From Klebsiella phage 05F01: 64,000 nt of DNA. Positions 33,262-57,392 of the stretch are shown here, in pieces. The notes under the pieces are model-generated. The model saw only the letters and a list, made by a program, of their open reading frames with translations. It was not told where the DNA came from and ran no database searches. The stretch is from sequence record LC483177.1. One strand, written 5' to 3'. A program made the position numbers and the translations under genes. Position 1 is the first letter of the stretch. Each line of letters opens with the position of its first letter.

Positions 33262-33271
33262 GGGAGATATT

Positions 33272-34608: not shown

Positions 34609-34612
34609 TATA

Positions 34613-34637
34613 AGCCCCTTTTGGGGCTTTATTTTTA
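34613..34637 (+). terminator. rho-independent terminator: AAGCCCC-ttt-GGGGCTT + T-run
   Basis: Hairpin followed by TATTTTTAT. Confidence 0.6.
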
Positions 34638-34647
34638 TCTAAAGTAG

Positions 34648-34676
34648 TTGACATAGTATGTAGGGTAAGATAAAGT
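34648..34676 (+). promoter_or_regulatory. sigma70-like promoter: AAAGTAGTTGACA-17nt-TAAAGT
   Basis: Consensus -35 with an A-rich upstream region. The -10 is imperfect. Confidence 0.4.
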
Positions 34677-34702: not shown

Positions 34703-35365
34703 ATGATGACTATCAAACATATCTCTTTCGATGTATGGAATACCTTAATCACTGCCAATAAGGGGTATGCTTTAGAGCGTTCTCAGGTGATATCTTACTT
34801 TGCAGGTATTTCCACTAAAGAAGCAGCAGAAGCTTATGCACTTGTTAAAATGTCACTTGATATGGACGCTTCTCTTGGTATCTGTAATGGTGTAAGTCAT
34901 GCATGGTATGAACTAGGTAAGTTTTTGGGAGTAGATAGGTCAACAGCAGATAAAATCAGAACGCACTGTGAGAAAGCTTTTATTGCAAACCCACCTCACC
35001 TTGATAAATCTCTGGTTGACGAGTTATCTGCTCTTAGTAATAAACATGAGTTGAGTATTAAAAGTAATACCAACTTTATTTCAGGAGAGGTATTATCTGA
35101 GACTTTGGGTTTTTATGAGATGCCGTGGTGGAGCTTCACCCACTTCTCGGATGATTATGGTTGGTGCAAACCAGATCCACTATTCTTCCAATGGACACAG
35201 GTTTGTAGTGATATTCAAGGTATTCGTGCAGAAGAAATTTTACATGTAGGTGATAGTGAAATTTTTGATGGCAAATGTGTTGACATTGGATTTAACTTCT
35301 GTAAAATTGATAACCCTGAACACTTACTGAATAAACTTAAAAATGGAGAACTCATTAATGCGTAA
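34703..35365 (+). CDS. HAD-superfamily hydrolase (variant motif I)
   Basis: ISFDVWNTLI is motif I with the second Asp replaced. HVGDSEIFD is motif IV. Confidence 0.45.
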   Translation: MMTIKHISFDVWNTLITANKGYALERSQVISYFAGISTKEAAEAYALVKMSLDMDASLGICNGVSHAWYELGKFLGVDRSTADKIRTHCEKAFIANPPHLDKSLVDELSALSNKHELSIKSNTNFISGEVLSETLGFYEMPWWSFTHFSDDYGWCKPDPLFFQWTQVCSDIQGIRAEEILHVGDSEIFDGKCVDIGFNFCKIDNPEHLLNKLKNGELINA

Positions 35366-36185
35366 AACAACTCAATTCTTTGCACACAATTTTTCATCTC
35401 TGGCTGATGCAGGTTTTTCTACAGATGACTACTCCAAACTTAAATTTGGTAGTAATCAGTCAGCAAAGCGTTTGGGTTATGAATTAGCAGATAGGTTCTT
35501 TATTACTAAATGTGCTGATAAGTTTAATGAGCGATTCGTGGTAATTCCTTCACCATACAATCATGTTCACAATGCAGCAACAGAAATGTCTAATCATTTT
35601 GTAAACCGATTGAATTATCTATTCTCATGCAATAAGTATAAGAATAGTGTGGAGTGGGATATTATTCACCGTAAAGTCAGTTATATCAATGATTATGGTT
35701 TCTTGAGCAAAGAGGATCGTAAATCACTTATTGATGGGGATAGCTTCTACCTCAATAAAGAATTCTGGAGTGGAAAGACACTTATTTTTATTGATGATGT
35801 CAACATTACTGGTACCCATGAAGATAAGCTAGTAGACATTCTTAACGAAAATGAAGTAGAAAATGACACTTATTTTCTTTACTTTGCAAAATACACAGGG
35901 ACCGAGGCTAATACCGAAGCTGCATTAAACTTCAGCTATATCCATAGTGTAGAGAAGTTTATTGAGATGATTAAGGAAGAACATGATGCTAAATGTCTGG
36001 TTCGACCAATTAAGTATTTGATGTCTCAACCTGAGATAACATTTAAAGTGGCGATTTCACAATTACCAACCAACTATGTTGAACACTTGTTTTTCGGTTG
36101 CTTGGCAGAAGGCTATGACAAGATTGAAAAATACAATGAGAACTTTGAGTTCTTGAAACATTTCTATGAAAGTAATATCATGTAA
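35343..36185 (+). CDS. type I phosphoribosyltransferase-fold protein (PRPP-binding motif)
   Basis: TLIFIDDVNITGTHEDKL matches the hhhhDDhxxTGxT PRPP loop. The upstream VVIPSPYN resembles the PRTase and Prs pattern. Confidence 0.4.
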   Translation: MENSLMRKTTQFFAHNFSSLADAGFSTDDYSKLKFGSNQSAKRLGYELADRFFITKCADKFNERFVVIPSPYNHVHNAATEMSNHFVNRLNYLFSCNKYKNSVEWDIIHRKVSYINDYGFLSKEDRKSLIDGDSFYLNKEFWSGKTLIFIDDVNITGTHEDKLVDILNENEVENDTYFLYFAKYTGTEANTEAALNFSYIHSVEKFIEMIKEEHDAKCLVRPIKYLMSQPEITFKVAISQLPTNYVEHLFFGCLAEGYDKIEKYNENFEFLKHFYESNIM

Positions 36186-36196: not shown

Positions 36197-36823
36197 ATGA
36201 GTAAATTTAAAGCAGGTGATGTAGTGGTTCGTATCAATTCCACTCTAGGCGAGTCTAATTACAGCTTAGAAGAAGTGCCTATTGGATATGTGGGTGTTGT
36301 TTATGAAGGGTTCACTGATGATGATTATTTTGATTTTGGTGACAAATTCAAATACACGTATGACGATGAGGATTTTGTGTTAGCAATTTCATCTTCACCA
36401 TTATTGAGTAAGTCAGCTTATGGTGAATTCCTTGAATCAGCACAGGCGATTGCTAAAGTGCAAGGGAAAGCTTGTATTGATGAAATTACAGCTACTATTA
36501 GTAAACTTACTGCTATCCACACATATGTTGACGATGTAATTGCTGAGTTGGAAAAAATTAAAGATGAAGTATCTAAGGTTGAAAAATTCACATCAGAGCA
36601 ACTTGAAATTCTTTCAGCTTCTGTAAAAATCACCAAGTTAGTGGGTGAATACTATCGTGATGGTAAAAGTGAACCTCTGTTCTTGAATGGTAGTGGTAAG
36701 ATTCGTCCTCCTATGAACACTCAACTGCCAACAGATACATTTAGTATTGATGAAGTAGAAGGGACATTGGCTGGTATTTCTTTAGATAAAGAAGCTATCC
36801 TCACTTTGCTGCGTAGTTTTTAA
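36197..36823 (+). CDS. hypothetical protein (208 aa)
   Basis: ORF with an AAGGAGAGATAAA RBS. Confidence 0.5.
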   Translation: MSKFKAGDVVVRINSTLGESNYSLEEVPIGYVGVVYEGFTDDDYFDFGDKFKYTYDDEDFVLAISSSPLLSKSAYGEFLESAQAIAKVQGKACIDEITATISKLTAIHTYVDDVIAELEKIKDEVSKVEKFTSEQLEILSASVKITKLVGEYYRDGKSEPLFLNGSGKIRPPMNTQLPTDTFSIDEVEGTLAGISLDKEAILTLLRSF

Positions 36824-36826
36824 ATA

Positions 36827-36850
36827 AAGGGGCGCAAGCCCCTTATTTTT
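36827..36850 (+). terminator. rho-independent terminator: AAGGGGC-gcaa-GCCCCTT + ATTTTT
   Basis: GNRA-type tetraloop hairpin followed by a T-run. Confidence 0.6.
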
Positions 36851-42672: not shown

Positions 42673-42827
42673 ATGCATACAAAGAGATCATTGAGGCATT
42701 AGAGTGGTATTTAGGCGATGGCGTAAACCCACTGAGTTCAGACTGTATATATGAAATTATTAATCAAGAGCACGACCCTATTGAAACAATAGCAAAAGCT
42801 CTGGATTATTATAGGGAAAATAAATGA
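42669..42827 (+). CDS. small hypothetical protein (52 aa), not in the ORF track
   Basis: MNAYKEIIEALEWYLGDGVNPLSS... It has ATGA overlaps with both neighbouring genes, suggesting translational coupling. Confidence 0.3.
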   Translation: MNAYKEIIEALEWYLGDGVNPLSSDCIYEIINQEHDPIETIAKALDYYRENK

Positions 42828-43312
42828 ACTACGCAGGGTACATTTTTGGTGACCTTGTGAATGGAGAGGGAGCTAGATGTTCCCTTTTTGTTTCTGGTTG
42901 CTCAAGAGGTTGTGAAGGGTGCTTTAACAAAGAGACTTGGGATTATTCCTATGGTTCTGTGTATACAAAAGAAACACAAGAAATGATTCTAAGAGATTTA
43001 TCAAAAGGTTACATCTCAGGACTGAGTATCTTAGGAGGTAATCCTTTAGAGAGAAAGAATTTTGATGTAGTGTACAACTTATGTGAAGAAGTTAAAAACA
43101 CATTTACAAACAAAGACATATGGATTTGGTGTGGTCAAACTTTTGAAGAAATCTCAAATGATAGTAAATTTAGTAAGATATTGCCCTTGACAGATGTTTT
43201 GGTGGATGGTAAATTTATCCCATCGAAAGCGAATCCTTCCTTGAAGTGGAGAGGTTCAAGTAATCAGAACATTTGGGTTAAGAGGGATGAAGAGTGGATT
43301 ATTCAACATTAA
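42824..43312 (+). CDS. nrdG: anaerobic RNR activating enzyme (radical SAM)
   Basis: CSLFVSGCSRGCEGCFN cluster, and GGNPLE. Confidence 0.8.
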   Translation: MNYAGYIFGDLVNGEGARCSLFVSGCSRGCEGCFNKETWDYSYGSVYTKETQEMILRDLSKGYISGLSILGGNPLERKNFDVVYNLCEEVKNTFTNKDIWIWCGQTFEEISNDSKFSKILPLTDVLVDGKFIPSKANPSLKWRGSSNQNIWVKRDEEWIIQH

Positions 43313-44050: not shown

Positions 44051-44377
44051 ATGAAAGTAATTGTTAAAGAGTACATAGTAAAACCTGGTGACACTTTGTC
44101 AGGTATTGCTAAAGAACTGTATGGAGACTCGTCTACTTATCTCGATATAGCTGAGGTGAATAAAATTGAGAATACAAATCTTATTTTCCCTGGACAAGTG
44201 CTTAAACTACCTTATCCGGCAACAGATAAAAACTTTACCTTAGTTACAATTAAGCCTACAAGAGAGGCATTGGACAGAATCTCTAGTCTATTTTCACCAG
44301 GTTTCTGTGATGGAAGAATGGAGTATGCAATTTATGCAGCAGCTCTGGGAGTAGAAGAGCAATCTTACAATACATAA
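44051..44377 (+). CDS. LysM-domain protein
   Basis: YIVKPGDTLSGIAKELYGD...LIFPGQVLKLP. Confidence 0.65.
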   Translation: MKVIVKEYIVKPGDTLSGIAKELYGDSSTYLDIAEVNKIENTNLIFPGQVLKLPYPATDKNFTLVTIKPTREALDRISSLFSPGFCDGRMEYAIYAAALGVEEQSYNT

Positions 44378-44434: not shown

Positions 44435-44462
44435 TTGACATCATAGAAATTGTATGTAGAAT
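44435..44462 (+). promoter_or_regulatory. sigma70-like promoter: TTGACA-16nt-TAGAAT
   Basis: Consensus hexamers with an A-rich upstream region. It precedes the TerC-family gene. Confidence 0.55.
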
Positions 44463-44510: not shown

Positions 44511-45575
44511 ATGAACACTTTTATGAAATTTTACAAATGGCCCACATTCTTCTTTGTGTTGGCACTTTTAGCAGGGGCATGGATTGGCTTCGTTGAGGCT
44601 GGTGTAAGTGGAATGTTAAGTAGTGTATTGGCTGTTGGTATTCTGTGTATTCTTGAAATCTCACTGTCATTTGACAATGCGGTATTGAATGCTAAAAAAC
44701 TTCAAGATATGGAACAAAAATGGCGTGATTGGTTTATTAAGTGGGGGATGCTGATCGCCGTTTTCGGAATGCGCTTGGTTCTTCCTATCCTTATCGTATC
44801 TGTCTTAGGTGGAATGGCTCCGTGGACTGCTGTAAGCTTAGGTCTACATGACCCAGCTAAGTATGCAGAGGTGTTGCAAAGTAGCCACCATATTGTAGCT
44901 AGCTTTGGTGGTGCGTTCCTGATGATGGTTGCTCTTGAGTTCTTCCTTGATCATGAAAAAGATGTTCACTGGATGAAATGGATTGAATATCCTGTTAGTC
45001 ATATTGGTAAAGTGGGTATTGTTGCAGAAGCTTTCATTACACTTCTTATGATTATTGGAGCAAGTTTTGGTGCTCATGGAGATGATCAAGTGATGTTTAT
45101 TATCTCAGGTGTATGTGGTATCCTGCTCTTTGTGGGTATTCATTTCCTGAAAGAGTATCTTGAATCGAAGGATGAAGAGAAAGCAGCGGCATCTGTTGGT
45201 GCAGTAGTTAAATCAGGATTGGCTGGTGTTCTCTACCTAGAAGTTCTGGATGCATCTATGTCTTTTGATGGCCTGATTGCTGCATTTGCGATTACACAAT
45301 ATTTTCTTGTGATTATGTTAGGTTTGGGTGTTGGTGCCTTCTTTGTCCGAGAAATGACACTGCATGTTCTTGATAGTGGACATCTTGCTGAATTCCGTTA
45401 CCTTGAACATGGTGCTTTCTATGCTATCTTTTCTCTGGCTAGCATCATGCTCCTAAACTTCTTCTTTGAAGTCCCAGAAGTTGTCACCGGATTGATTGGT
45501 GTAGCATTCCTTACAGCAGCAGTGTGGCATAGTCATATCCTTAATAAACGTGAAGAGTCTCTTGTTACAAGTTGA
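44511..45575 (+). CDS. TerC-family integral membrane protein (DUF475/YceF-like)
   Basis: Multi-pass membrane protein with the LEISLSFDNAVLNA motif, the TerC family LS.DN signature. Confidence 0.55.
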   Translation: MNTFMKFYKWPTFFFVLALLAGAWIGFVEAGVSGMLSSVLAVGILCILEISLSFDNAVLNAKKLQDMEQKWRDWFIKWGMLIAVFGMRLVLPILIVSVLGGMAPWTAVSLGLHDPAKYAEVLQSSHHIVASFGGAFLMMVALEFFLDHEKDVHWMKWIEYPVSHIGKVGIVAEAFITLLMIIGASFGAHGDDQVMFIISGVCGILLFVGIHFLKEYLESKDEEKAAASVGAVVKSGLAGVLYLEVLDASMSFDGLIAAFAITQYFLVIMLGLGVGAFFVREMTLHVLDSGHLAEFRYLEHGAFYAIFSLASIMLLNFFFEVPEVVTGLIGVAFLTAAVWHSHILNKREESLVTS

Positions 45576-45578
45576 TAA

Positions 45579-45605
45579 AAAGCCCCGAAAGGGGCTTTAT
45601 TTTTA
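45579..45605 (+). terminator. rho-independent terminator: AAAGCCCC-gaaa-GGGGCTTT + ATTTTTATT
   Basis: Perfect 8-bp stem, GNRA-type loop and a T-run. Confidence 0.65.
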
Positions 45606-45634
45606 TTGACAGAATATCACTGGTAAGATAAGAT
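45606..45634 (+). promoter_or_regulatory. sigma70-like promoter: TTGACA-17nt-TAAGAT
   Basis: Lies immediately after the terminator. Confidence 0.5.
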
Positions 45635-45659
45635 GTATCTATCAAATGAAGAGGAGAAA

Positions 45660-46220
45660 ATGATGAACGTAACTAAAGATATGATTGATGCTTGGGTTAA
45701 GGATGCACCTGAATGGGCGGTAGGGATTGTTAAACGTGAAAGTAAACACGAACATAACAACTGTGCTTATGCATATGTAGGTGAAAAATTTGGGTATCAA
45801 TATATACTTTTTTCAAATGACGTATATCTTGACTATGTAGGTAAAAAATTTGCTTTTCAGGAATTTCAAACAGATGGTGATTCCTTCAAATATGAAGTGC
45901 TAGCGAAAACACATCAAGAACCTGTTGTTGGTGAAGATGTATTGGTCCACTTTGATGGAGATAATTCTAGTGTTTGGACGAAGTTTAAATTAGAATACCA
46001 GAAAGGTGACGTTGTTGTTCTATATGACTATCGTATTGAAGATGTAGAGACTTACAGATTTTCTCGTATCACAATGAAGAAATATGTTAAAACTGTAAGA
46101 GAAAATGCTATTGACCAGATTGCAAGTTTAATTGGTCGTGGGACTTTTGCAGAAGATGCTGAAGCAATCTATGATGCAATCAAGAGTAATGAGATCTCAA
46201 TTTTTACAGAGGAGAAATAA
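45660..46220 (+). CDS. hypothetical protein
   Basis: Start at MMNVTKD, which has a GAGGAGAAA RBS. Confidence 0.5.
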   Translation: MMNVTKDMIDAWVKDAPEWAVGIVKRESKHEHNNCAYAYVGEKFGYQYILFSNDVYLDYVGKKFAFQEFQTDGDSFKYEVLAKTHQEPVVGEDVLVHFDGDNSSVWTKFKLEYQKGDVVVLYDYRIEDVETYRFSRITMKKYVKTVRENAIDQIASLIGRGTFAEDAEAIYDAIKSNEISIFTEEK

Positions 46221-46221
46221 A

Positions 46222-46656
46222 ATGAAAAATAAATTTATGGTGGCGGTTGTTCTGTCTTGTGCATTTCTTTTTGGTTGTGATGAAGATGTGCAACAGACTG
46301 CTGTTCCGGTATATCAGCAAGAACCTAACCCGGCTCCTGTGGTTGTAAATAATCCCGCACCTGTTGTAGTTCAAAATCATGATAGTGGTATGGGAAGCTT
46401 TATTGCAGGTGCCTTAGTTGGACATGCACTTAGTGGTGGTAGTAACACACGGGAACGTGTTGTTGAGCACCATTATTATGACAATCGTCCTGCCTCTACA
46501 AGCAATTACCGTAGTAATGGAAGTAGTAGCTCTCAAACAAAATACTCTGCTCCTAGTAGTCGTATCCAGACAATGAAGACACAACCTACTAAACGTAGCA
46601 CTTATACACCATTTAGCCGTTCTAGTAGCTCTAAATATTCTTCACGTAAACGTTAA
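46222..46656 (+). CDS. putative lipoprotein (lipobox LFGC) with a Ser-rich C-terminus
   Basis: Signal peptide MKNKFMVAVVLSCAFLFGC. Confidence 0.5.
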   Translation: MKNKFMVAVVLSCAFLFGCDEDVQQTAVPVYQQEPNPAPVVVNNPAPVVVQNHDSGMGSFIAGALVGHALSGGSNTRERVVEHHYYDNRPASTSNYRSNGSSSSQTKYSAPSSRIQTMKTQPTKRSTYTPFSRSSSSKYSSRKR

Positions 46657-46657
46657 T

Positions 46658-47236
46658 ATGCAAACTGAAGAATCTATTAAAGTCTTGTGGCGTAAGGTGA
46701 TGACTGAACTAAAGGAACATCACCCTACCTACTATAAACTACTTCTTGACAACGGGTACCGTGTAGGAGTAAGATTTAAGCATAATAATTCTTTTGGGTG
46801 GGCAAATGGAGTGGAGAAACTTGCTATTATTAATTTGTTTCTACATAGGAATAGTAATGATAGTATGGTGGTAGATACAATGTGGCATGAGTTGGCCCAT
46901 TGCATTGATTACTGTAAAAGAGGGTATTCAGATCATGGACCTAAATGGAAAGCTATAGCATCTGAAATAGGTGCAACACCAGAACGTGTTTCAAAAAGAG
47001 CAGTAAAAGTTGATTATAAATATGTTTGTGTGTACAGAAAGAGTAGTGTAGAATACATAGTATTGAAAGGGTATCACAGGAAACCTCCAGGATATAAAGC
47101 TAATAGCTTAATGTCAGATACATTCCAACGTGGCAACAAAGAAGGTAGCTACGGAAAAGTTTGGCTATATACTTGGGATAAATGGAAAGATATCTGTGAA
47201 CAACTAGGCAAATCTCCATATAAAGAGGAAAATTAA
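46658..47236 (+). CDS. SprT-like zinc metalloprotease domain protein
   Basis: The HExxH motif in TMWHELAHCIDYC, followed by H.GP.W (SDHGPKWKAI). Confidence 0.55.
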   Translation: MQTEESIKVLWRKVMTELKEHHPTYYKLLLDNGYRVGVRFKHNNSFGWANGVEKLAIINLFLHRNSNDSMVVDTMWHELAHCIDYCKRGYSDHGPKWKAIASEIGATPERVSKRAVKVDYKYVCVYRKSSVEYIVLKGYHRKPPGYKANSLMSDTFQRGNKEGSYGKVWLYTWDKWKDICEQLGKSPYKEEN

Positions 47237-47818
47237 ATGAAAAAGTGGAAAGTGGTTAAAGGTGATGGTAATCTTTTTAAAAATGCACCCAAATGGTGTA
47301 CTCAAATTTCTTCCGATGAAGATGGAACTCGCCGTTATTATGAGGAAGCTTTTGGTGTTAATGGGGCAAAATTTCAGAACATTCGTGAAGGTGCTGTTTG
47401 GTGTTTGAACAATAAAGACACCTTTAATGATGGCCTTGTAGTTATCGCTGAACGCGAATTAATTGAAGAAAAAGAAACTTCACCTAAACGAGTTAAAGGT
47501 CCTAAGCAACCTAAGAAAACATCCAATAAAGTTGTTGTAAACTATAATACAGGAGAAACCTACACAATTAAAGGTGTTGCTAGTGTGTCCCTGGAAGATA
47601 ACTCTTTCCAAGTATTCAAAGAATACAAACACGTAAATGAAATATTTAAATTTAATGGGTGTGAATTCCCATCTAAAGATGTTGCAAGTATTGAAATTCA
47701 TGGGGTTAATAAGACATATATTATTCACAAAAGTGAGGATTTTACAAACAACTTTGCATTTGTAACACAAAGCGGGGATTTTATTCTTAGTAATAGTTTT
47801 TCCTTAGTTGATTTTTGA
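47237..47818 (+). CDS. hypothetical protein with a basic linker + conserved C-terminal module (3 of 3)
   Basis: PKQPKKTSNKVVVNYNTGETYTIKGV. Confidence 0.5.
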   Translation: MKKWKVVKGDGNLFKNAPKWCTQISSDEDGTRRYYEEAFGVNGAKFQNIREGAVWCLNNKDTFNDGLVVIAERELIEEKETSPKRVKGPKQPKKTSNKVVVNYNTGETYTIKGVASVSLEDNSFQVFKEYKHVNEIFKFNGCEFPSKDVASIEIHGVNKTYIIHKSEDFTNNFAFVTQSGDFILSNSFSLVDF

Positions 47819-47825
47819 GGTGACA

Positions 47826-48974
47826 ATGAAAAAAGTAAAACTAAGTATTGTTGAAGATTACGTAAGTCACTGGTCTTGGTGGGAAGGTGTCCGAGAACTT
47901 TTACAGAACGCCATCGATACAAAAGAATATGAAGTTGATTTTCTTTCCAATGCGATTAAGATCTCATCTCATGGAGGTAAAATACCTACACAAGCACTTC
48001 TGATGGGGCGCTCATCTAAGCAAGATGATGAAAGCACTATTGGTAAGTTTGGTGAAGGTATGAAACTTGGTTTTCTTGTCCTTATTCGTGAAGGTGCAAA
48101 AGTTCATGTTAATAACTTCTCAGATGTTTGGGAACCTGCTATGGAAATGGATGACACATTCGATCAGGAGATTCTGTGTGTGAATATTCATGAGAATATT
48201 TTACCAATGAATCAGAAAGTCGAAGTGGTGATTAATAATATCCCTAACCATGCTATGGCAGAGATTAAAGAGAAATTTGCACCACAAAAAGATTTAAAAG
48301 TGGCAATATCCAATGATAAGGGAACTGCTTACTTTAAAGATCGTGAAGGAAGTGATTGTAATTTATATGTTAGTGGGCTATTTGTATGCTCTGTTCAGGG
48401 TAAATACAAATTTGACTATGATTTCAAACCGGATGTGTTTGAACTCGATCGTGATAGGGATTCTGTTAGTGAGTTTAATGTTCAGTATTATGCATCACAA
48501 CTCATCTCTGAAAGTGACGATATCGAACTGTTGGTTGAACTTGCAATGGAAGAGTTTGACGATTTGAAATACTTTGAGGGTCGTAGAAAGAAAAACTCTG
48601 TAGGTAAATATTGGGGATGTTCATTAGATGAAAGTGAAGAAGATATTCTCACTGACCATGCTGTTGAACTTTTTGAAGAGAAGTATGGATATGATGCTGT
48701 CCCTATCAACGATTCCTGGAGTCAAGAGAAGAAATCCACTATCACAAAAGTGGCTATCTCTAAGGGATTTACTCCTATTGCAGTTAAAAAATCCCTTTAC
48801 AGTATGATTCAAGGTAGATACAATATTGAAGGTGAAGTTAACGAAATCTTGAAATTTGATGCTCTGGATTTCTTGGAGAATTTCCTTAAAAAATATGAGC
48901 GTAAGTTGTATAATAAGCCACGAAAAGAAATTGAGAATGTTATCTTCAAACTTAAACTTGCAAAAGAAAAGTGA
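47826..48974 (+). CDS. GHKL-type (HATPase_c, MORC-like) ATPase, tentative
   Basis: N-box ELLQNAIDT and G-box IGKFGEGMKLGF. Confidence 0.4.
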   Translation: MKKVKLSIVEDYVSHWSWWEGVRELLQNAIDTKEYEVDFLSNAIKISSHGGKIPTQALLMGRSSKQDDESTIGKFGEGMKLGFLVLIREGAKVHVNNFSDVWEPAMEMDDTFDQEILCVNIHENILPMNQKVEVVINNIPNHAMAEIKEKFAPQKDLKVAISNDKGTAYFKDREGSDCNLYVSGLFVCSVQGKYKFDYDFKPDVFELDRDRDSVSEFNVQYYASQLISESDDIELLVELAMEEFDDLKYFEGRRKKNSVGKYWGCSLDESEEDILTDHAVELFEEKYGYDAVPINDSWSQEKKSTITKVAISKGFTPIAVKKSLYSMIQGRYNIEGEVNEILKFDALDFLENFLKKYERKLYNKPRKEIENVIFKLKLAKEK

Positions 48975-48980
48975 GGTAGT

Positions 48981-50036
48981 ATGACAAGCCCTTTTAAACA
49001 ACAAACAGCTACAAAAGCTAAGTCACCGTTTGGTAACGTAGAGATTAAGAATAGTCCTATCAAGGCCCCAACTATTTCTAAAATTCCTAAAACACCTGTT
49101 ATCCGTTTGACTGAAGAAGAGATTGAATCCCTTGGAAGTGCTACTGGCACTTCTTTGAGGGCAGTATCTGGACAAATGCTGGCATTTCAACAGAACAATT
49201 CTAATGATGAAATGACCAGTCGTCTCAACACTATGATGCTGGAAGCTAAAAAACTTGATCCAGATTCTATCAAGCAAGCTAAAGGTATTTCTAAATTCAT
49301 TAAAAAGATTATGGGTGTAAAAGAAAACCTCTTTGCTGAATTTAAGACAATTGAGGCTCGCATTAATGAACTGTCAGAAGAAATTATGAAGGATATCCGA
49401 AAGCAAAATGATAGCTTGGTGTTCCTTGATAATTTAAAACGATCTGTAGGTGAGTTTCTACTTTCTATGGAACGTGACCTACAAATTCTGCAAGCAGAGT
49501 ATGAGAAGACTGAAGAAGACTTTAATATTGCTGATCCAGAAGACAAAAATGAACTACAGGCACGTCTTGACCTTATTTTAACTCGTGTTGCAGATATTAA
49601 AGGATTCAGAATCCTTTGTGTTCAGATGGGGCAGCGCATTGACAATATGAAGAAAACCAGTAAGATGCTTACTGTAGGTGCTAAGAACTTGCTAGAAAAA
49701 GCTGTTCCGGCTTATGCAGCATCTTTCTCCATTTACATTACAGCGAAAGAACAAGTTGAGGCTGCTAAAACTCAGAATAATATTATTGATGGATTTAATG
49801 ATGTTATTCAGAAAGGTAATGAAATGGCTAATGTTGCTCAAATTGAAGCAACTAAACTGTCAAATAAACAGACTGTTTCTCTTGAAACACTAAACCATGC
49901 TAAAGAGTCAATGTTCACTCTATTTGATGAAGTTGACCGCCTTAATAAAGAGGCTCGTGCAAACACACTTGAGTATATCAAAGCAGCAGATGTCCTTGAG
50001 TCCGATATTGCTAAACGTATTAGGGATGCCCGATAA
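48981..50036 (+). CDS. coiled-coil protein, possibly TelA-like (toxic anion resistance family). Low confidence.
   Basis: ~350 aa, long helical/coiled-coil content, and a position in a Ter-like neighbourhood. No diagnostic motif verified. Confidence 0.3.
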   Translation: MTSPFKQQTATKAKSPFGNVEIKNSPIKAPTISKIPKTPVIRLTEEEIESLGSATGTSLRAVSGQMLAFQQNNSNDEMTSRLNTMMLEAKKLDPDSIKQAKGISKFIKKIMGVKENLFAEFKTIEARINELSEEIMKDIRKQNDSLVFLDNLKRSVGEFLLSMERDLQILQAEYEKTEEDFNIADPEDKNELQARLDLILTRVADIKGFRILCVQMGQRIDNMKKTSKMLTVGAKNLLEKAVPAYAASFSIYITAKEQVEAAKTQNNIIDGFNDVIQKGNEMANVAQIEATKLSNKQTVSLETLNHAKESMFTLFDEVDRLNKEARANTLEYIKAADVLESDIAKRIRDAR

Positions 50037-50230
50037 TGAAAACTATTACATTGACACCACTAGAACTCATTACTATCATGGAAGATGCTTTTATTGATGG
50101 GTGGAATAAAGCAGAACAAAATGAATGGTGGGACCCAAAATTGTTCTTAGAACTTTATAAAGAGGAAGGTGATTCATCAGAAACCACAACTGCAATAGAA
50201 GATATTAAGGAGGAATACAATGTCTCGTAA
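50036..50230 (+). CDS. hypothetical acidic protein (64 aa)
   Basis: ORF with an ATGA overlap to the previous gene. Confidence 0.4.
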   Translation: MKTITLTPLELITIMEDAFIDGWNKAEQNEWWDPKLFLELYKEEGDSSETTTAIEDIKEEYNVS

Positions 50231-50939
50231 TGTGGAAGATCCAAAAGAGGAAGTATGTAAAGAGGGGAGTTTACATGACTACTCTATCACACACCCAGCA
50301 TATGGTATTGTTACGGTTACTCACCCAACAGGTGGTGAAATGAAATTGTTTGGTAGTGACATGAAGCATAATAACCGTGTGTGCCTAACTTTCTACAAGG
50401 CAGTGGAAGACCGTTCACTAAGTAACTCTTGGATACACGGGAAAGAGATTCTTATGGAAGTCGAACTATCTGAAACTCAGTGGGCTAGTTTAGTTAGCAG
50501 TAATATGGGAAGCCCTACACCGATCACTTATCGTCACTATCGTGATGGAAACTTGGTAAATGTCCCTCTTATTGGTCAACAGAAGACAGAAAGAGAGAAG
50601 TTTAGTAAGGAATACCAGGATACTATCAGAACCCACATGGAGCGTGGTCAAGCTGCTTTAGCTAAACTTATGGAGCTTAAAGAAAAAGGTAAAGCTGGTA
50701 AAAAAGATATTGACGACCTTATCAGTATTATGCAACAATCATTAGGTAGATTCGCGGCAGATACAGTTTTCTCTGCTAAATGCTTTGAAGAAGTTATGGA
50801 GAAAACTGTTACACATGCTCAAGTTGAGATTGAGAATTCAATCAGCAACCTGGCAAAACGAATTGGCGCGGAACATTTAGGTATTAGCTTAGATAAAAAT
50901 TTATTAAGCAACATTAAAGAGGAAGACAATGACAATTAA
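50220..50939 (+). CDS. hypothetical protein (239 aa)
   Basis: ORF. Confidence 0.5.
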   Translation: MSRNVEDPKEEVCKEGSLHDYSITHPAYGIVTVTHPTGGEMKLFGSDMKHNNRVCLTFYKAVEDRSLSNSWIHGKEILMEVELSETQWASLVSSNMGSPTPITYRHYRDGNLVNVPLIGQQKTEREKFSKEYQDTIRTHMERGQAALAKLMELKEKGKAGKKDIDDLISIMQQSLGRFAADTVFSAKCFEEVMEKTVTHAQVEIENSISNLAKRIGAEHLGISLDKNLLSNIKEEDNDN

Positions 50940-51201
50940 GTTTGATAAAGTTAAGAAAGAAAATCAAAGTGATGTAGTGACTAAGTTTAGATATCTTGGT
51001 TTAGGTGAAACTTTTATGTATGAGGCTGCATACCGTTCTGATGGCCTAGATTTGGAGACTAATGTCTTATTTATTAAAACTGACCATAATACTGCGTTAG
51101 AACTTAACTATACAGGCAATAACTGTACTTGTGATGATGATTTAGGAGTTGTTGCTGTAGATTTAGAAGTTAGTTCTGTAAAACTGAAAGGAGAAAAATA
51201 A
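50929..51201 (+). CDS. hypothetical protein (90 aa)
   Basis: ORF. Confidence 0.4.
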   Translation: MTIKFDKVKKENQSDVVTKFRYLGLGETFMYEAAYRSDGLDLETNVLFIKTDHNTALELNYTGNNCTCDDDLGVVAVDLEVSSVKLKGEK

Positions 51202-52010
51202 TGAGTAAAATTTCACTACAAAAACGTCAAGAGGTTCTTAAAATTAGCCTTAAAAAGGCTAATGTATCCGACAAGCTTACACTACGTGTTGCTTGCGCAT
51301 TAGATATTTCAAGTAGTATGCAAAATCTCTATCGTAATGGTAGTGTTAGTGAGTTGGTTGGAAAGCTACTTCCTTTTGGTATGATGTTTGATGATAATGC
51401 ACAGATTGATATGTGGGCTTTTAATCATGGGAGCAGTGAACTTCCTCCTGCTACAGAATCTGTTTACGATGATTATGTAAATAATTGCATGAAAAATATT
51501 TCTATTAGTGGTGGAACTAATTATGCACCTGTTATGGCAGATATCTATAACGAATACTTTGGTGGTGGAATTGTTACCAAGACCGTGTATAAAGAAGTAG
51601 AAGTCGATGAATATGTTCCAGCTAAGGGTTTTATGGCTAAATTAACAGGTAAAAAAGAACTTGTTAAAGTCAAAAAACAGGTATCTGAGCAAGTTGTCGA
51701 TCATGAAGCAATGGCTAATGTTGATACTACTCCTGCTATGGTTTTCTTCCAGACTGATGGCTCCAATTCAGATGAAAGTGCTGTAATTAGTTTGTTAAAT
51801 CGAAACAAAGATAAACCTATCTATTGGTTTATGGTTGGTGTAGGTGACCCACGTTACTTTGGATTCATCAAACGTATCTCTGACGAATTTGATAACGTTG
51901 ATTTTATTTCTGTAAAAGACCTTGACTTGTCAGATGAAGAACTTTACAATAAACTTCTATCTGGCGAATTTGGTCAGTGGATTAAAACTGTTGGTGTTAA
52001 AGGCGCTTAA
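51201..52010 (+). CDS. vWA-domain protein (TerY-like) with a TerD-like N-terminal ISL.K...ISLKK motif
   Basis: MIDAS motif DISSSM, plus ISGGTNYAPV. The N-terminus MSKISLQKRQEVLKISLKK mirrors the TerD N-terminus. Confidence 0.55.
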   Translation: MSKISLQKRQEVLKISLKKANVSDKLTLRVACALDISSSMQNLYRNGSVSELVGKLLPFGMMFDDNAQIDMWAFNHGSSELPPATESVYDDYVNNCMKNISISGGTNYAPVMADIYNEYFGGGIVTKTVYKEVEVDEYVPAKGFMAKLTGKKELVKVKKQVSEQVVDHEAMANVDTTPAMVFFQTDGSNSDESAVISLLNRNKDKPIYWFMVGVGDPRYFGFIKRISDEFDNVDFISVKDLDLSDEELYNKLLSGEFGQWIKTVGVKGA

Positions 52011-52038
52011 TAATTTAAATAAATAAGGAGATATAAAC

Positions 52039-52638
52039 ATGGCTAAGATTTCACTGAAAAAAGGTTCCACTAATAAGATTTCTCTTAAAAAATCTGCACC
52101 ACTTCTTCGTAAGATTCGTGTAGAATTTTCTTGGACCTCTAATAGTAAACTGGACCTTGATGCAAGTGCATTGCTGTGTCGTAAAGACTCAAATGGTGCT
52201 GCACAAATTATTAGTGAAAAGCATATGGTTTTTTATGCACAAGGCTGTCAATTTGACCAATCTAAATCAGTGTTCTACGGTGGTGATGTTCGAGATGGTA
52301 GTGGTGATAAAGAAACAATTGAGATCAATCTTGAAACTCTCCCATCAGATATTGAAATTATTCCTCTGATCCTGACTATTGATGACCCACGTGATCAAGG
52401 ACTTACTTTTGGTAATGCAACTGGCGGTTTGCTTAAAATTATTAACGCAGAAACTGATGAAGAGATCCTTGACTTTGATTTCCTGGCTGACGATCTTAAA
52501 AACCTCAGCATTATTCATGTTGCAAATATTGAAGTAAATGGTGCTGATTGGAATGTTGAAGGTGTTGGAGTTGGTGGTGTAGGTGGTATTCTTGATGCAT
52601 TCCTCATGTTCGGTGCTTCTGCTGACTGGTTTGAATAA
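52039..52638 (+). CDS. terD: TerD-family protein
   Basis: ISLKKGSTNKISLKK...LDLDASALL...FYGGDVRDGSGDKETIEINL...ADW. This is the canonical TerD pattern. Confidence 0.75.
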   Translation: MAKISLKKGSTNKISLKKSAPLLRKIRVEFSWTSNSKLDLDASALLCRKDSNGAAQIISEKHMVFYAQGCQFDQSKSVFYGGDVRDGSGDKETIEINLETLPSDIEIIPLILTIDDPRDQGLTFGNATGGLLKIINAETDEEILDFDFLADDLKNLSIIHVANIEVNGADWNVEGVGVGGVGGILDAFLMFGASADWFE

Positions 52639-52699: not shown

Positions 52700-52730
52700 A
52701 GATAGACATAAACACAAAATGGAGGTAGTA

Positions 52731-53255
52731 TTGCATAATAAAATTAAGAAATCCTTATTAGGTGGATTGTTGGTAACAGCTTTTACCTTTTCTCCTATTA
52801 ATGCAGAAGCAAAAGTAAAGGCAGTTAATAATCAAGTAGTACATATCTGTAATAAGAAAGATACGCCTGTTAACTTACTTGCTTGTGCCATGTATGCTGA
52901 AGGACGTGGAGAAGGTGAGAAGGGTATGTTTGCTATAGGGAATGTCATACTAAATAGAGATTCATCAGAAGATTTTCCCGATGGAATACACTCTGTTGTC
53001 TACCAAAAAGGGCAGTTTACATACCTAAAAAGATTTTCTATTAGAATAAAAGATAAAGACTCTTGGGAAAAAGCACTGAAAGTTAGTAGAAAACTAATTT
53101 ATCTAAATGACAATTTTCCTGAGTTACGTGTAGCTAATGATATAACACGTGGTGCCACCTATTACAAAAGGTGGGATGTCCATCCTAAGTGGTCTAAGAA
53201 AATGAAAGTTGTCTATAGATATAAAGGTCATGTTTTTTATAAGGAGAGGAAATGA
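52731..53255 (+). CDS. secreted cell-wall hydrolase (SleB/CwlJ Hydrolase_2 family), a candidate endolysin
   Basis: LLACAMYAEGRGEGEKGMFAIGNVILNR...FPDGIHSVVYQKGQFTYL. TTG start 5 nt after a GGAGG RBS. N-terminal signal/TM segment. Confidence 0.6.
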   Translation: MHNKIKKSLLGGLLVTAFTFSPINAEAKVKAVNNQVVHICNKKDTPVNLLACAMYAEGRGEGEKGMFAIGNVILNRDSSEDFPDGIHSVVYQKGQFTYLKRFSIRIKDKDSWEKALKVSRKLIYLNDNFPELRVANDITRGATYYKRWDVHPKWSKKMKVVYRYKGHVFYKERK

Positions 53256-54890: not shown

Positions 54891-55496
54891 ATGAATCCAA
54901 TATATGTCCACCACATTACACCATTCCTGGATGGTGATATTGTTGGTGGTATCAACAAAGCAATTGAAAACCTTCCTGATGATGCTATCATCTGTCTACG
55001 AGATGCAGATACTCTCTTTCTCTTACCAAATCAACAAGAACAAGTTGATCATTTGGCAAGAGTTTATATACAATCCGGTGAATACGATGTAATCTCATGC
55101 ATGACAAATAGACTTGGTAGAAAACAATCTCATCAACTCTATCTAGGAGAAAGAAGCGATAACACAGACATCATAGAACATATGTGTATTGCAGCAGACC
55201 TACAATCAATGAAATACTTGAATGTAAAACCTGTCCCTGAAGGTAAGATAGTTGCAGGTGTTATGTTAATGTTTAAGAAATCTCTCATAAAAGAAGTACC
55301 TATGCTCCAACGTTCTGTCCAATTCGATATTATATGGAGTAGAGAGTTACATAATAAAAATAAAAAGATTGGTATCGCAGAAGGACTATATCTATGGCAT
55401 ACGTATCGTCTAGGTTCTGATGATCCAGAACGTGCTCTAGGTCACTTAATAAAAGCACAAGACTTTGATCTTGTTATCTCTTTGGAGGAAAATTGA
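54891..55496 (+). CDS. hypothetical protein, possibly a nucleotide-sugar transferase-like protein
   Basis: DAIICLRDADTLF is a DxD-like motif. Weak support. Confidence 0.3.
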   Translation: MNPIYVHHITPFLDGDIVGGINKAIENLPDDAIICLRDADTLFLLPNQQEQVDHLARVYIQSGEYDVISCMTNRLGRKQSHQLYLGERSDNTDIIEHMCIAADLQSMKYLNVKPVPEGKIVAGVMLMFKKSLIKEVPMLQRSVQFDIIWSRELHNKNKKIGIAEGLYLWHTYRLGSDDPERALGHLIKAQDFDLVISLEEN

Positions 55497-56215
55497 TTAC
55501 AATTGATGATAAAGACTTTAAAGTGGGTGTAGGTGTAATTACTATAGGAAAAAGGAAATTACCTGACTATAAAACAGAAAAATCTGGTGCTGACTTTAAG
55601 GTCTTTATAGATAAAGATAGGAAAGGGGTGGCATACGCAAGGAATATGTTAATAAAACAGTTTTATGATTCAGGTTATGATTACTGGTTTATTTTTGATG
55701 ATGATGTATATCCAAATGAGCCAGATCATGTAAGCTATATTAAATATTTTACTGAAACAGCATACAAATTCAACTATGACTGTTTTCTAAGTCCTGAGTA
55801 TTTTAGAGACAGTATATGCGGTTCTACTGATAATGGTGAGGTAATTCTATTTAGTGATGCGATGAGCCAATTCATGTTTTGCAGTAGAAAAATGGTAGAA
55901 GTTATTGGCTATATACCTACTCTCCCTAATAATTATGGGTATGAGGATGCGCTATTTTTGGATATGTTAAAACTTGCCCAAAGAAAGGGATTAATTAATA
56001 ATGGTGTAAATGGAATACCTTGTCCAACTAAAGCTTTGTGCTTTATACATCCAACTGATATGTACTCGGATAATATAGAGTCATTTACAAATATGACTTA
56101 TGAAGAGAAACAAAGCGCAATTTCAGCTAATGCCCCTTATTTTGAAAAAATCAAAAATAAAATATCTGAAGGTAAATACTTTTTCTCTTTTGATGAGGTA
56201 ATGGATGGAAAATAA
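55493..56215 (+). CDS. GT-A fold (GT2-like) glycosyltransferase
   Basis: KGVAYARNMLIKQ...DYWFIFDDDV matches the G.a.ARN...yi.flDDD pattern. Confidence 0.45.
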   Translation: MITIDDKDFKVGVGVITIGKRKLPDYKTEKSGADFKVFIDKDRKGVAYARNMLIKQFYDSGYDYWFIFDDDVYPNEPDHVSYIKYFTETAYKFNYDCFLSPEYFRDSICGSTDNGEVILFSDAMSQFMFCSRKMVEVIGYIPTLPNNYGYEDALFLDMLKLAQRKGLINNGVNGIPCPTKALCFIHPTDMYSDNIESFTNMTYEEKQSAISANAPYFEKIKNKISEGKYFFSFDEVMDGK

Positions 56216-57128: not shown

Positions 57129-57385
57129 TTAATAATATTATTACAGTAGATGTGGAAGTAAATGATGAAAGTTATGGTGATATTGTTTTAGAGATATCTT
57201 TTATATTTAATCCGGCAGACCCACTAGATTTTAGTTCTGATTGGAATTATGAAGGAAATATTGATATAACTTCAGTAAAAGCTTATGATGGAAAGCGTGA
57301 GTTAAATAATTATAAACTATCGGATCATGAAGCCTTGAATTTTGTTAAAGCAGCAATTAGAGAGGCAGAATTATCTAAAATGTAG
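57125..57385 (+). CDS. hypothetical protein (86 aa)
   Basis: ORF. Confidence 0.4.
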   Translation: MINNIITVDVEVNDESYGDIVLEISFIFNPADPLDFSSDWNYEGNIDITSVKAYDGKRELNNYKLSDHEALNFVKAAIREAELSKM

Positions 57386-57392
57386 AGGAAAT

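Follow-up and report, generated by a model that had tools for sequence, protein, structure and literature searches.

The window, a 64,000-nucleotide stretch of Klebsiella phage 05F01 (LC483177.1), carries at positions 44511-52638 a run of genes that an earlier, sequence-only reading interpreted as a tellurite-resistance-type (Ter-like) neighborhood. We recovered all of the open reading frames of this cluster, on the + strand and at the coordinates first reported, together with every motif string quoted from them. The cluster, its candidate regulatory signals, and its conserved flank comprise the following features.

44435..44462, +, sigma-70-like promoter candidate upstream of the DUF475 gene (TTGACA-16-TAGAAT, 11/12)
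44511..45575, +, DUF475/TerC-clan polytopic inner-membrane protein, putative divalent-cation transporter (Pfam DUF475 PF04332, E 5e-93; TerC PF03741, 3e-17)
45579..45598, +, terminator-like hairpin directly after DUF475 (8-bp stem with 5 G-C pairs, then a T-run)
45606..45634, +, sigma-70-like promoter candidate before the long downstream unit (TTGACA-17-TAAGAT)
45633..46220, +, o195, lineage-specific 195-aa protein (no Pfam or PHROG match)
46222..46656, +, probable inner-membrane lipoprotein with a signal peptide and a Ser/Arg-rich tail
46658..47236, +, SprT-like zinc metalloprotease (Pfam PF10263, 5.4e-7)
47237..47818, +, o193, 193-aa protein that follows SprT in relatives (matches only PHROGs without assigned function)
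47826..48974, +, GHKL-fold ATPase-like protein (phrog_6077), rIIA-like at the fold level, a clade-specific insertion
48981..50036, +, TelA (toxic-anion-resistance family), soluble helical protein (Pfam PF05816, 8.3e-27)
50036..50230, +, o64, small conserved protein (49-58% identity with small ORFs that follow TelA in phAPEC8 and FKP3)
50220..50939, +, 239-aa protein with a beta-rich N-terminal half and a long helical hairpin (phrog_6452, E 3e-52)
50929..51201, +, o90, small conserved protein (38% and 32% identical to two phAPEC8 paralogs that flank the vWA gene)
51201..52010, +, TerF-type vWA protein with a complete MIDAS motif (Pfam vWA-TerF-like PF10138, 1e-38)
52039..52638, +, TerD-domain protein (Pfam PF02342, 1.4e-30)
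52719..53255, +, SleB-type cell-wall hydrolase with an N-terminal signal-like segment, the conserved flank (Pfam Hydrolase_2, 1.6e-19)

Profile searches bear out a Ter-type neighborhood on this phage, with Pfam matches that extend beyond TerD to DUF475/TerC, TelA, the TerF-like vWA domain, and the SprT-like domain. The TerD protein, recognized as such from the outset, aligns over its full length with the solved K. pneumoniae TerD (2kxt, E 4e-20), keeping the DLDAS and GD.R.DG.GD.E loops and differing by a 2-residue deletion. The coiled-coil protein described as TelA-like is matched by the TelA family over nearly its full length and by phrog_5890, annotated "tellurite resistance." The MIDAS motif of the vWA protein (DISSS at residue 35, GGTNY, FFQTDGSNSD) is complete, and the protein is 42-68% identical to its relatives; its type is TerF (PF10138) and not the TerY/PF00092 type originally suggested. 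Likewise, the membrane protein called a TerC-family member does match TerC but is strictly DUF475, a TerC-clan paralog, with ~8-9 hydrophobic segments and two copies of an E/D-x-S-L/M-S-F-D-N/G motif (residues 49 and 247). It is 83% identical to its FKP3 counterpart, and canonical TerC occupies its position in phAPEC8 and FBKp34, so that TerC and DUF475 stand in for one another at one phage position; bacterial DUF475 genes lie inside canonical Ter loci (with TerD copies, TerB, PRTase_2, and TelA) in two of the three genomes examined. We found no hydrophobic segments in TelA, the vWA protein, or TerD.

The boundaries originally drawn leave out the HAD and PRTase genes of the system, which lie 9 kb upstream and are separated from the other Ter genes by PARP, radical-SAM, and NrdDG genes.

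34612..34629, +, terminator-like hairpin closing the preceding unit (7-bp G+C-rich stem, then a T-run)
34648..34676, +, sigma-70-like promoter candidate, intergenic, before the HAD-like gene (TTGACA-17-TAAAGT, 10/12 positions)
34703..35365, +, o220, HAD-superfamily-like hydrolase, partner of the PRTase (Pfam Hydrolase PF00702, full length, E 0.031)
35343..36185, +, ComF-like phosphoribosyltransferase (PRTase_3), Ter-associated biosynthetic enzyme (Pfam PF15610, E 4.1e-44)
36197..36823, +, 208-aa protein, last gene of the unit (no family match)
36827..36844, +, terminator-like hairpin at the end of the unit

The PRTase is 54-70% identical to homologs in phAPEC8, FKP3, and FBKp34, and its matches almost always overlap the neighboring hydrolase/HAD gene. 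The assignment of o220 to the HAD superfamily is weak (E 0.007-0.03): the protein resembles the HAD phosphatase 2om6 (E 0.007), with an identical motif I, FDVWNTL, contains KPDP and GDSEIFD motifs, and is 51-55% identical to the "hydrolase" adjoining the PRTase in the same three phages. Whether the 208-aa protein, which is 37% identical to FBKp34 gp110, a neighbor of the PARP gene, belongs to the Ter system is uncertain. DUF475 and the HAD-PRTase unit are each bracketed by sigma-70-like promoter and terminator candidates, and we found no terminator between SprT and TerD. Promoter-like sites are no more numerous in the region than in shuffled sequence, and the promoter at 34648..34676 is therefore a candidate only; at the place equivalent to that upstream of DUF475, phAPEC8 has an annotated host-dependent promoter before its TerC gene.

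Among the interspersed genes, the SprT-like protein scores above the Pfam cut-off (29.9 versus 25.6 bits) and contains HELAH at residue 77, with HGPKW downstream, consistent with the HExxH protease proposed earlier. In phAPEC8 and FKP3, the genes immediately before TelA encode proteins with 44-49% identity to the 05F01 protease, and the phAPEC8 one is itself a Pfam SprT-like match (4e-9). Within the phAPEC8-like phage group, SprT is a conserved neighbor of TelA. The lipoprotein, also anticipated, probably starts at ATG 46222, which is preceded by an AGGAG ribosome-binding site, and its predicted signal peptide ends FLFGC|DEDV. Positional homologs in FKP3, phAPEC8, and L017 share the signal peptide, a Cys-Asp/Glu junction, an HDSG.G.F..G.L.GH..SGG motif, and the S/R-rich tail; L016 lacks a homolog. 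We infer that the protease and the lipoprotein are accessories specific to the phAPEC8-like group. Homologs of o193 in phAPEC8, L016, and L017 are weak (28-47% identical) yet occupy the same position, and o195, 55% identical to its L016 homolog, is absent from phAPEC8, FKP3, FBKp34, and L017. The phrog_6452 gene, for whose product the AF2 model has a pLDDT of 48, too low to be of use, also lies between TelA and the vWA gene in L016 and L017; in FBKp34 and phiCbK it is not near Ter genes. The SleB-type hydrolase, whose start we set by reference to gene calls of 174-178 aa in L010 and L016, follows TerD in phAPEC8, FKP3, L010, L016, and L017 and follows TelA in FBKp34; the annotations of these relatives name it endolysin or cell wall hydrolase.

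An entire Ter-like neighborhood on a phage was initially thought unusual. However, phAPEC8, FKP3, and FBKp34 (Stephanstirmvirinae) carry a syntenic cluster, located as in 05F01 between anaerobic ribonucleotide reductase and primase/polymerase genes, and TerD, TelA, and the PRTase match 147, 181, and 156 phage records, respectively, with nearly identical organism profiles. The common order is NrdD-NrdG-...-TerC/DUF475-...-SprT-TelA-...-vWA-TerD-endolysin-glycosyltransferases-primase (40-83% amino acid identity); FBKp34 keeps TerC, vWA, TerD, and TelA but has no recognizable SprT, and the metagenomic relatives L010, L016, and L017 share the gene order of 05F01. The arrangement is far beyond chance, since this gene order is found again in phages with proteins of only 40-70% identity. 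The Ter core of 05F01 shares 94-95% identity with that of L016, similar to NrdD (95%) and primase (96%), whereas the interspersed genes are 47-81% identical; this difference could partly reflect mosaic recombination instead of selection.

The GHKL ATPase-like gene, which probably starts at ATG 47826 (382 aa), differs from its neighbors in distribution. Its family alignment shows an invariant N-box (E24, N28, D31) and G2 box (G73, G76, G78), with Ser in place of Asp in the G1-box, and no Pfam or NCBIfam cut-off is passed (SACS 0.014; sacsin ATP-binding-like domain, 27 bits against a cut-off of 50). Homologs occur in 113 phages, mostly in unrelated contexts; phiTE has its copy next to the replication genes, and KP13-16 and L007-L009 have theirs among early genes for hypothetical proteins. 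The slot between o193 and TelA is filled only in the close clade of 05F01, and other phages carry the gene at different sites, so it is probably a passenger, separate from the cluster into which it was inserted. The view that GHKL and SprT are not standard Ter components is upheld, but their pairing is not, given that SprT is stable beside TelA across the phage group.

We conclude that the genes of this cluster are a real, cut-down copy of the bacterial Ter membrane stress system, which, compared with terZABCDEF, lacks TerB, multiple TerD paralogs, and TerA/Z/E; PADLOC defense models gave no match to its proteins. As the cluster is conserved and already published for a whole group of large E. 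coli and Klebsiella phages, it is an ordinary further example and not a discovery. Published descriptions of the cluster cover phiKp34, PhiPsa374, jumbo phages of Caulobacter, and Acinetobacter phage ME3, and phage Ter systems have appeared in the literature together with a superinfection-exclusion hypothesis (PMC7824862, PMC8386662, PMC9796965). On balance, we lean toward reading 44511-52638 as the part of a shortened, phage-encoded Ter stress-response system that acts at the membrane, the system being a module inherited in phAPEC8-like (Stephanstirmvirinae-related) myoviruses. Because no experiment on any phage Ter cluster turned up in the literature searched, we infer the functional steps from the published Ter model (Anantharaman/Iyer/Aravind, as summarized in PMC7824862) and from family knowledge, with component roles and the superinfection-exclusion idea taken from PMC7824862 and PMC8386662. 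The PRTase and HAD enzyme would act early in infection to produce a small molecule resembling a nucleoside. TerD, a cytoplasmic protein with a solved relative that binds Ca2+, would sense this molecule and/or Ca2+, TelA and the MIDAS-containing vWA protein would assemble under the inner membrane, and the TerC-clan transporter would alter divalent-cation flux across it. The infected cell's envelope might then withstand superinfecting phages, colicins, and membrane or ion stress until programmed lysis. Weighing against this reading are the missing TerB and TerD paralogs, the weak HAD assignment, the 9 kb between the HAD-PRTase unit and the other Ter genes, the absence of a PADLOC match, and the chance-level number of promoter-like sites. 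The roles suggested at first, in envelope or ion stress and superinfection exclusion, agree with the published hypothesis (PMC7824862).

In B. subtilis, TerC proteins are Mn2+ exporters that metalate secreted enzymes, and an unlikely alternative is that the TerC-clan transporter and TerD move Mn2+, Ca2+, or Zn2+ across the inner membrane for a purpose other than excluding competitors. The metal might metalate or regulate phage or host periplasmic enzymes, the adjoining secreted SleB-type hydrolase being a candidate target, or cytoplasmic levels might be kept right for phage metalloenzymes. Consistent with this, the NCBIfam profiles of two metal-transport TerC subfamilies, YkoY and YjbE, give weak matches, K. 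pneumoniae terC is reported to be tied to zinc besides tellurite (PMC12054061), a signal-bearing cell-wall hydrolase follows the last Ter gene in all relatives examined, and the cluster is placed among metal-dependent nucleotide-metabolism genes (NrdD/NrdG, radical SAM enzyme). However, metal supply leaves TelA, the vWA protein, and the PRTase-HAD pair unexplained, we know of no need for metalation in Hydrolase_2 (SleB-type) enzymes, and a search for direct evidence of such supply found none.

With similarly low probability, the cluster might act with the rIIA-like GHKL protein, the lipoprotein, and the adjoining endolysin to stabilize the inner membrane, either delaying lysis or resisting membrane-collapsing abortive-infection systems (lysis inhibition or counter-defense). 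An endolysin-type gene always adjoins the cluster (phAPEC8, FKP3, FBKp34), DUF475 is flanked by a LysM protein and the lipoprotein, and the named viral proteins closest to GHKL in structure are RIIA "protector from prophage-induced early lysis" proteins, rIIA being listed as a poorly understood counter-defense system (PMC7824862). Against this, a sequence-profile link between GHKL and RIIA was not found (probability 0.9%), most relatives that retain the Ter core have no GHKL in the slot, and we identified no holin or spanin within the cluster.

More doubtful still is that GHKL and SprT are integrated new components of the Ter system of this clade, for example an ATP-driven remodeler and a processing protease acting on a TelA-vWA assembly. 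GHKL keeps its slot between o193 and TelA in 05F01, L010, and L016 at 74-98% identity, SprT lies directly upstream of TelA or is separated from it only by o193 (phAPEC8, FKP3, L016, L017), and the stretch from SprT to TerD is free of terminators; yet both genes diverge far faster than the Ter core, and the scattered contexts of GHKL homologs, the G1-box substitution, and the SprT-less FBKp34 cluster argue against integration. Finally, tellurite, xenobiotic, or metal resistance conferred on infected or pseudolysogenic hosts, as by plasmid ter/telA operons, is improbable: tellurite resistance first defined the TelA and TerD families, and xenobiotic resistance during pseudolysogeny is raised as an additional possibility in PMC7824862, but in the relatives, which are virulent myoviruses, the regions examined contain no lysogeny module, TerB and TerA/Z/E are missing, and the cluster lies among early replication and nucleotide-metabolism genes, with a core as conserved as replication proteins, which points to a gain for the phage itself.

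Every ORF that the sequence-only reading had listed for a proposed phage-borne Ter-like cluster at 44511-52638 was present and in place, and all of the motif strings it had quoted were found. A Pfam search returned five families above their curated cut-offs, with the TelA-like coiled-coil protein matching TelA (PF05816, 8.3e-27), TerD matching its own family (PF02342, 1.4e-30), and the HExxH protein matching SprT (PF10263, 5.4e-7; 29.9 bits versus a cut-off of 25.6). The membrane protein assigned to the TerC family does match TerC, but secondarily (3e-17); its best family is DUF475 (5e-93). The vWA protein, described as TerY-like, matched only the vWA-TerF-like family at E <= 0.01 (PF10138, 1e-38) and not PF00092 or PF13519, and the cluster holds no PP2C or kinase partner of the kind seen in TerY-phosphatase-kinase triads.

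Residue-level features accompany these assignments. Over its full length, TerD aligns to the K. pneumoniae TerD structure 2kxt (E 4e-20), with a two-residue deletion, and keeps the DLDAS and GD..G.GD.E loops. The MIDAS signature of the vWA protein is intact (DISSS...T...D), and the SprT-like protein has both HExxH and the third histidine (H77-E-L-A-H81 ... D-H93-G-P-K-W). DUF475 carries a duplicated SxSFD(N/G) motif and is polytopic, with about 8-9 hydrophobic segments; none were found in TelA, vWA, TerD, SprT or the GHKL protein. The N-termini of vWA (51201-51260, MSKISLQKRQEVLKISLKK) and TerD (52039-52095, MAKISLKKGSTNKISLKK) are very similar, and the stand-alone vWA appears to keep a leading strand motif resembling that of TerD, as though it had come from a TerF-type fusion of TerD and vWA.

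The published model of Ter systems includes a biosynthetic arm (Iyer, Anantharaman, Krishnan, Burroughs and Aravind 2021, PMC7824862). The gene set first proposed for this phage had left that arm out; we located it at 34703-36185. It and the candidate transcription signals are as follows.

34612: terminator-like hairpin
34703-35365, + strand: HAD-like hydrolase, overlapping the next gene (PF00702, E 0.031, full length; the weaker assignment)
35343-36185, + strand: PRTase_3/ComF-like phosphoribosyltransferase (PF15610, 4e-44; firm)
36827: terminator-like hairpin
44435-44462: promoter-like site of the DUF475 gene
45579-45598: terminator of the DUF475 gene

The hydrolase additionally matches PDB 2om6 (E 0.007, with an identical FDVWNTL motif) and contains KPDP and GDSEIFD motifs. 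In all three Stephanstirmvirinae relatives compared (Escherichia phage phAPEC8 and Klebsiella phages FKP3 and FBKp34) the HAD-PRTase pair adjoins the Ter genes, whereas in the window it lies 9 kb away; in more distant phages, overlap between the PRTase match and a neighboring hydrolase or HAD gene is nearly universal. The two hairpins bracket HAD, PRTase and o208, a protein without a family name. In phAPEC8 the annotation places a host-type promoter ahead of TerC, in agreement with the DUF475 site. Because promoter-like sites are in total no more numerous than expected from shuffled sequence, we treat all of them as candidates only. Immediately upstream of the DUF475 promoter region lies a gene for a small LysM-domain protein (44051-44377, + strand; 6.6e-13); the loci of phAPEC8, FKP3, FBKp34 and the metagenomic relatives L016 and L017 revealed no homolog of it.

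The region thus holds TerD, a TerC-clan membrane protein, TelA together with a TerF-type vWA, and a linked PRTase and HAD enzyme. TerB (PF05099) gave no match in the Pfam-scanned ORFs of 31.8-53.3 kb. Published phage versions also do without TerB (PMC7824862), so we describe the cluster as an abbreviated Ter system. It is not a terZABCDEF operon proper, which is ruled out by the single TerD, the missing TerB, the presence of DUF475 in place of TerC, and the stand-alone vWA. PADLOC defense models returned no match to the Ter proteins except a weak generic one to the PRTase.

Bacterial Ter loci, including terZABCDEF of IncHI2 plasmids and E. coli O157 as well as loci with DUF475, share with the phage cluster TerD-domain proteins, a TerC-clan protein (DUF475 in the bacterial loci L013 and L015), TelA and a PRTase-based biosynthetic module. 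Only the bacterial loci have several TerD paralogs, TerB, PRTase_2/TRSP, StiP/PELOTA and a C-C bond lyase, none of which occurs in the phage ORFs scanned; the phage, in contrast, has PRTase_3 and the stand-alone TerF-type vWA.

The place of DUF475 in such systems was examined through a homolog search followed by neighborhood look-ups. Of three bacterial genomes examined, with DUF475 genes 45-48% identical to the window copy, two have the gene within a classical Ter locus. That of Novosphingobium sp. Leaf2 has four TerD-domain genes, PRTase_2/TRSP, StiP/PELOTA, a C-C bond lyase and TelA, and that of Marinagarivorans algicola has two TerD genes, TerB and PRTase_2; in the Chitinimonas neighborhood Ter genes were not found nearby. 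A scan of genome contigs with a single DUF475 protein yielded no confirmed locus. Among the phages, the position taken by DUF475 in the window and FKP3 is filled in phAPEC8 and FBKp34 by a canonical TerC (about 3e-40). Given this shared position and the bacterial DUF475 genes inside Ter loci, TerC and DUF475 look interchangeable within the Ter system, and the swap lends support to the two membrane proteins being functionally equivalent. The DUF475 genes of the window (44511-45575) and FKP3 (L002 6200-7246) are 83% identical in protein and 76% in DNA, against 41-70% for most of the other genes in common, and no other gene of the cluster gave a megablast hit; this suggests that the lineages have recently exchanged DUF475.

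Every large ORF beyond about 22 kb in the window lies on the + strand, and these ORFs encode replication and nucleotide-metabolism functions, including the following.

39655-41769, + strand: NrdD, anaerobic ribonucleotide reductase
42824-43312, + strand: NrdG
57342-59183, + strand: primase-helicase
60475-62649, + strand: family A DNA polymerase, 57% identical to that of Klebsiella phage vB_KpM_FBKp34
within the window, + strand: helicase, a replication gene

NrdD, the primase and many other window proteins are 40-80% identical to those of Stephanstirmvirinae phages, with gene order kept. A megablast of 44511-52638 against phages gave a sole match, the FKP3 DUF475 gene at 76% DNA identity, and hence no sequenced relative is close at the DNA level. 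Together, the protein identities, gene order and this single DNA match make the phage a relative, probably uncultivated, of phAPEC8-like myoviruses. Metagenomic contigs of about 140 kb contain versions that are near-identical or 81-95% identical, and an exact-sequence look-up of the window TelA found no record.

Several neighboring genes deserve mention. A radical-SAM protein (38631-39560, + strand; 2.3e-9) is encoded directly upstream of NrdD. NrdD itself is about 300 codons longer in FBKp34 (L006 76-3093), where the window protein matches in two blocks, and in L016 (1-2197) it is called as two genes with two small ORFs between them; this suggests that some lineages carry an intein or a homing-endonuclease insertion there. 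Three glycosyltransferase-like genes in a row (o201, o240 and GT307; 54891-57128, + strand) lie between the endolysin region and the primase and are conserved with four phAPEC8 glycosyltransferases. An RNA ligase (phrog_968, 6e-100; 17171-18421, - strand) belongs to the leftward-transcribed block.

The sequence-only reading had held that an entire Ter neighborhood carried by a phage is unusual. Its observation stands and its interpretation is borne out only partly: TerD matches 147 phage records, TelA 181 and PRTase 156, and the genes are syntenic in relatives. The organism profiles of the three proteins are nearly identical and consist mostly of Phapecoctavirus/Justusliebigvirus-type E. coli and Klebsiella phages, with Caulobacter, Brevundimonas and Rhizobium phages also represented. 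In phAPEC8, FKP3 and FBKp34 the order runs NrdD, NrdG, TerC-clan protein, lipoprotein, SprT-like protein, TelA, small ORFs, TerF-type vWA, TerD, SleB-type endolysin, glycosyltransferases and primase, and in FBKp34 the genes are already annotated as a Ter-type cluster. Because this synteny is conserved, we reject chance juxtaposition. Ter genes have been listed for phiKp34, another name of vB_KpM_FBKp34 (terC, terF-vWA, two terD and telA; PMC8386662), and PhiPsa374 (terC, terD, terF and telA), where they were noted to be widespread in phages (PMC9796965). Complete and abbreviated phage Ter systems have been described, with a role for each component and a proposed function in competition with superinfecting phages (PMC7824862).

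Compared with the Stephanstirmvirinae clusters, that of the window has the same gene set and order, HAD and PRTase nearby, and the same position between NrdDG and the glycosyltransferases and primase. The proteins are 40-83% identical, only the DUF475 gene matches at the DNA level, and the membrane protein is DUF475, as in FKP3, rather than the TerC of phAPEC8 and FBKp34. Extra genes are present in the window (o195 and o239, which have no family name, and the GHKL ATPase), and its HAD-PRTase pair, instead of adjoining the cluster, lies 9 kb upstream. FBKp34 differs in having two TerD genes, another order and no recognizable SprT. The Ter systems of Acinetobacter phage ME3 and Caulobacter jumbo phages share PRTase and HAD, TerD, TerC, TerF vWA and TelA and the same proposed role in competition with superinfecting phages; these are jumbo phages of other lineages, for which association with SprT, a lipoprotein or GHKL was not reported, and "certain other related smaller tailed phages" are mentioned only in passing (PMC7824862). 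We regard the window cluster as a diverged new example of this published phage module, varied in two minor ways: its TerC is replaced by DUF475, and an rIIA-like GHKL gene has been inserted.

Comparison with metagenomic relatives separates the genes that belong together from those interspersed among them. The window and L016, a relative at genus level, share 94-95% identity in the Ter core, comparable to NrdD (95%) and the primase (96%), while identity is much lower in the interspersed genes: o195 55%, SprT 69%, o193 47%, GHKL 74%, o64 73%, o239 81% and o90 64% (o193, like o195 and o239, has no family name; o64 and o90 are small conserved proteins). The more distant L017 keeps DUF475, lipoprotein, SprT, o193, TelA, o239, vWA, TerD and the hydrolase; the GHKL gene is absent from its locus. 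GHKL homologs occur in 113 phages, mostly in unrelated neighborhoods: they adjoin replication genes in phiTE and sit with hypothetical early genes in KP13-16 and, at 55% identity, in the three metagenomic contigs L007-L009. These contexts lead us to reject the idea that GHKL travels with Ter genes. A main rival reading holds that GHKL and SprT are truly integrated into the Ter system; from the L016 and L017 comparisons and the GHKL contexts, we instead interpret GHKL as an insertion in the window's clade, SprT as stably associated with TelA among these phages, though not recognizable in FBKp34, and o239 as a semi-stable companion. o239 (phrog_6452) was also considered as a hidden Ter component and rejected, because in FBKp34 and phiCbK its gene is not near the Ter genes; close homologs numbered only 8, and its AF2 model (pLDDT 48) is too poor to use.

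That the inserted protein has the GHKL (Bergerat) fold, as first read from its motifs, proved right, and structure prediction alone recognized the fold. Searches of Pfam, NCBIfam, PADLOC and PDB sequences gave nothing above threshold: HATPase_c and HATPase_c_3 do not match the window protein and score only 0.012-0.11 on its homologs, and the NCBIfam sacsin domain reaches 27 bits against a cut-off of 50. The protein belongs to PHROG 6077 (5e-115) and probably starts at ATG 47826, as in a 99% identical database protein, with a GAGGTG site upstream. In an alignment of 35 homologs, N-box residues E24, N28 and D31 (ExxxNxxD) and G2-box residues G73, G76 and G78 (GxxGxG) are invariant. The G1 box in these homologs is S48-x-G50-G51, with an invariant Ser, and not DxGxG with the adenine-contacting Asp, so ATP binding is only putative.

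The label MORC-like is not specifically supported. In a Foldseek search of predicted viral structures, the top ten were uncharacterized phage proteins, led by an Erwinia phage family homolog, and after them the nearest named neighbors of the GHKL model, GHKL388, were overwhelmingly RIIA proteins (E 3e-8 to 1e-5; TMq 0.35-0.42, below 0.5). Like T4 rIIA-type proteins, it has its GHKL domain at the N-terminus and a variable C-terminal part (PMC7824862), yet it is half as long, with 382 aa versus about 700-800 aa. The RIIA PHROG did not match it, and hhalign of its family against T4 RIIA was not significant (probability 0.9%, with only the G2-box segment aligned); for the latter reason we do not call it an rIIA family member. 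It is best described, from the model, as a short rIIA-like GHKL-fold protein with putative ATP binding. In the window, L010 and L016, members of a probably uncultivated clade, the gene occupies a slot between SprT/o193 and TelA, and we considered whether the Ter module might have taken in a GHKL protein with Ser for the adenine-contacting Asp, the two then acting together as a single membrane-integrity device. We think this improbable; if true, it would join rII-type protection against membrane-collapsing host defenses with the stress response of the Ter genes.

For the putative lipoprotein, the most likely start is ATG 46222, preceded by an AGGAG site. It has one N-terminal hydrophobic segment, and its N-terminus reads MKNKFMVAVVLSCAFLFG-C-D, the signal peptide ending in LFGC followed by Asp. 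The candidate lipobox Cys is conserved in 4 homologs, and the positional homologs in FKP3, phAPEC8 and L017 share the Cys-Asp/Glu junction, a glycine-rich HDSG.G.F..G.L.GH..SGG motif and a Ser/Arg-rich tail. Under the E. coli lipoprotein sorting rule, Asp at +2 directs inner-membrane retention, which suggests that the window lipoprotein is kept in the inner membrane.

Homologies, synteny, conservation and predicted localizations come from the present analysis; for a mechanism we draw on the published model and on knowledge of the families. The PRTase and HAD enzyme would produce a nucleoside-like signal, sensed by TerD, whose fold binds Ca2+ in 2kxt; TelA and the MIDAS vWA would form a sub-membrane assembly, and the TerC-clan protein would change divalent-cation flux. 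The envelope of the infected cell might then exclude competitors or tolerate membrane and ion stress until lysis. We lean slightly toward this mechanism as a whole. Its main rivals are a metal-supply role, a role in lysis timing or against abortive infection, and a resistance moron that benefits the host. About six genes conserved as tightly as replication proteins argue that Ter does something directly useful during infection. In the literature searched, phage Ter clusters had not been put to any experimental test. What the Ter system does biochemically has stayed unclear for three decades, and virulent phages with only about six Ter genes provide a natural minimal version, already open to study in the cultivable relatives phAPEC8, FKP3 and phiKp34. 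To these the window adds one diverged lineage, the TerC-to-DUF475 swap and the clade-specific rIIA-like GHKL insertion; it does not by itself open a new question.

Upstream of the cluster, a PARP-like protein (37313-38614, + strand) carries WGR, PARP regulatory and PARP catalytic domains (Pfam 4e-26, 1e-7 and 5e-6) and is 80% identical to FBKp34 gp111 ("poly [ADP-ribose] polymerase"), an unusually high conservation for the region. A weak YqeY-like match lies at 33119-33709 (+ strand; 2.4e-4), and the FBKp34 annotation has a YqeY-like gene close to PARP. A Macro-domain protein (31836-32459, + strand; Pfam 9.8e-5) is 45-52% identical to products of "phosphatase" genes of phAPEC8, FKP3 and FBKp34, and the presence of Macro-domain and PARP genes suggests a phage ADP-ribosylation writer/eraser pair.
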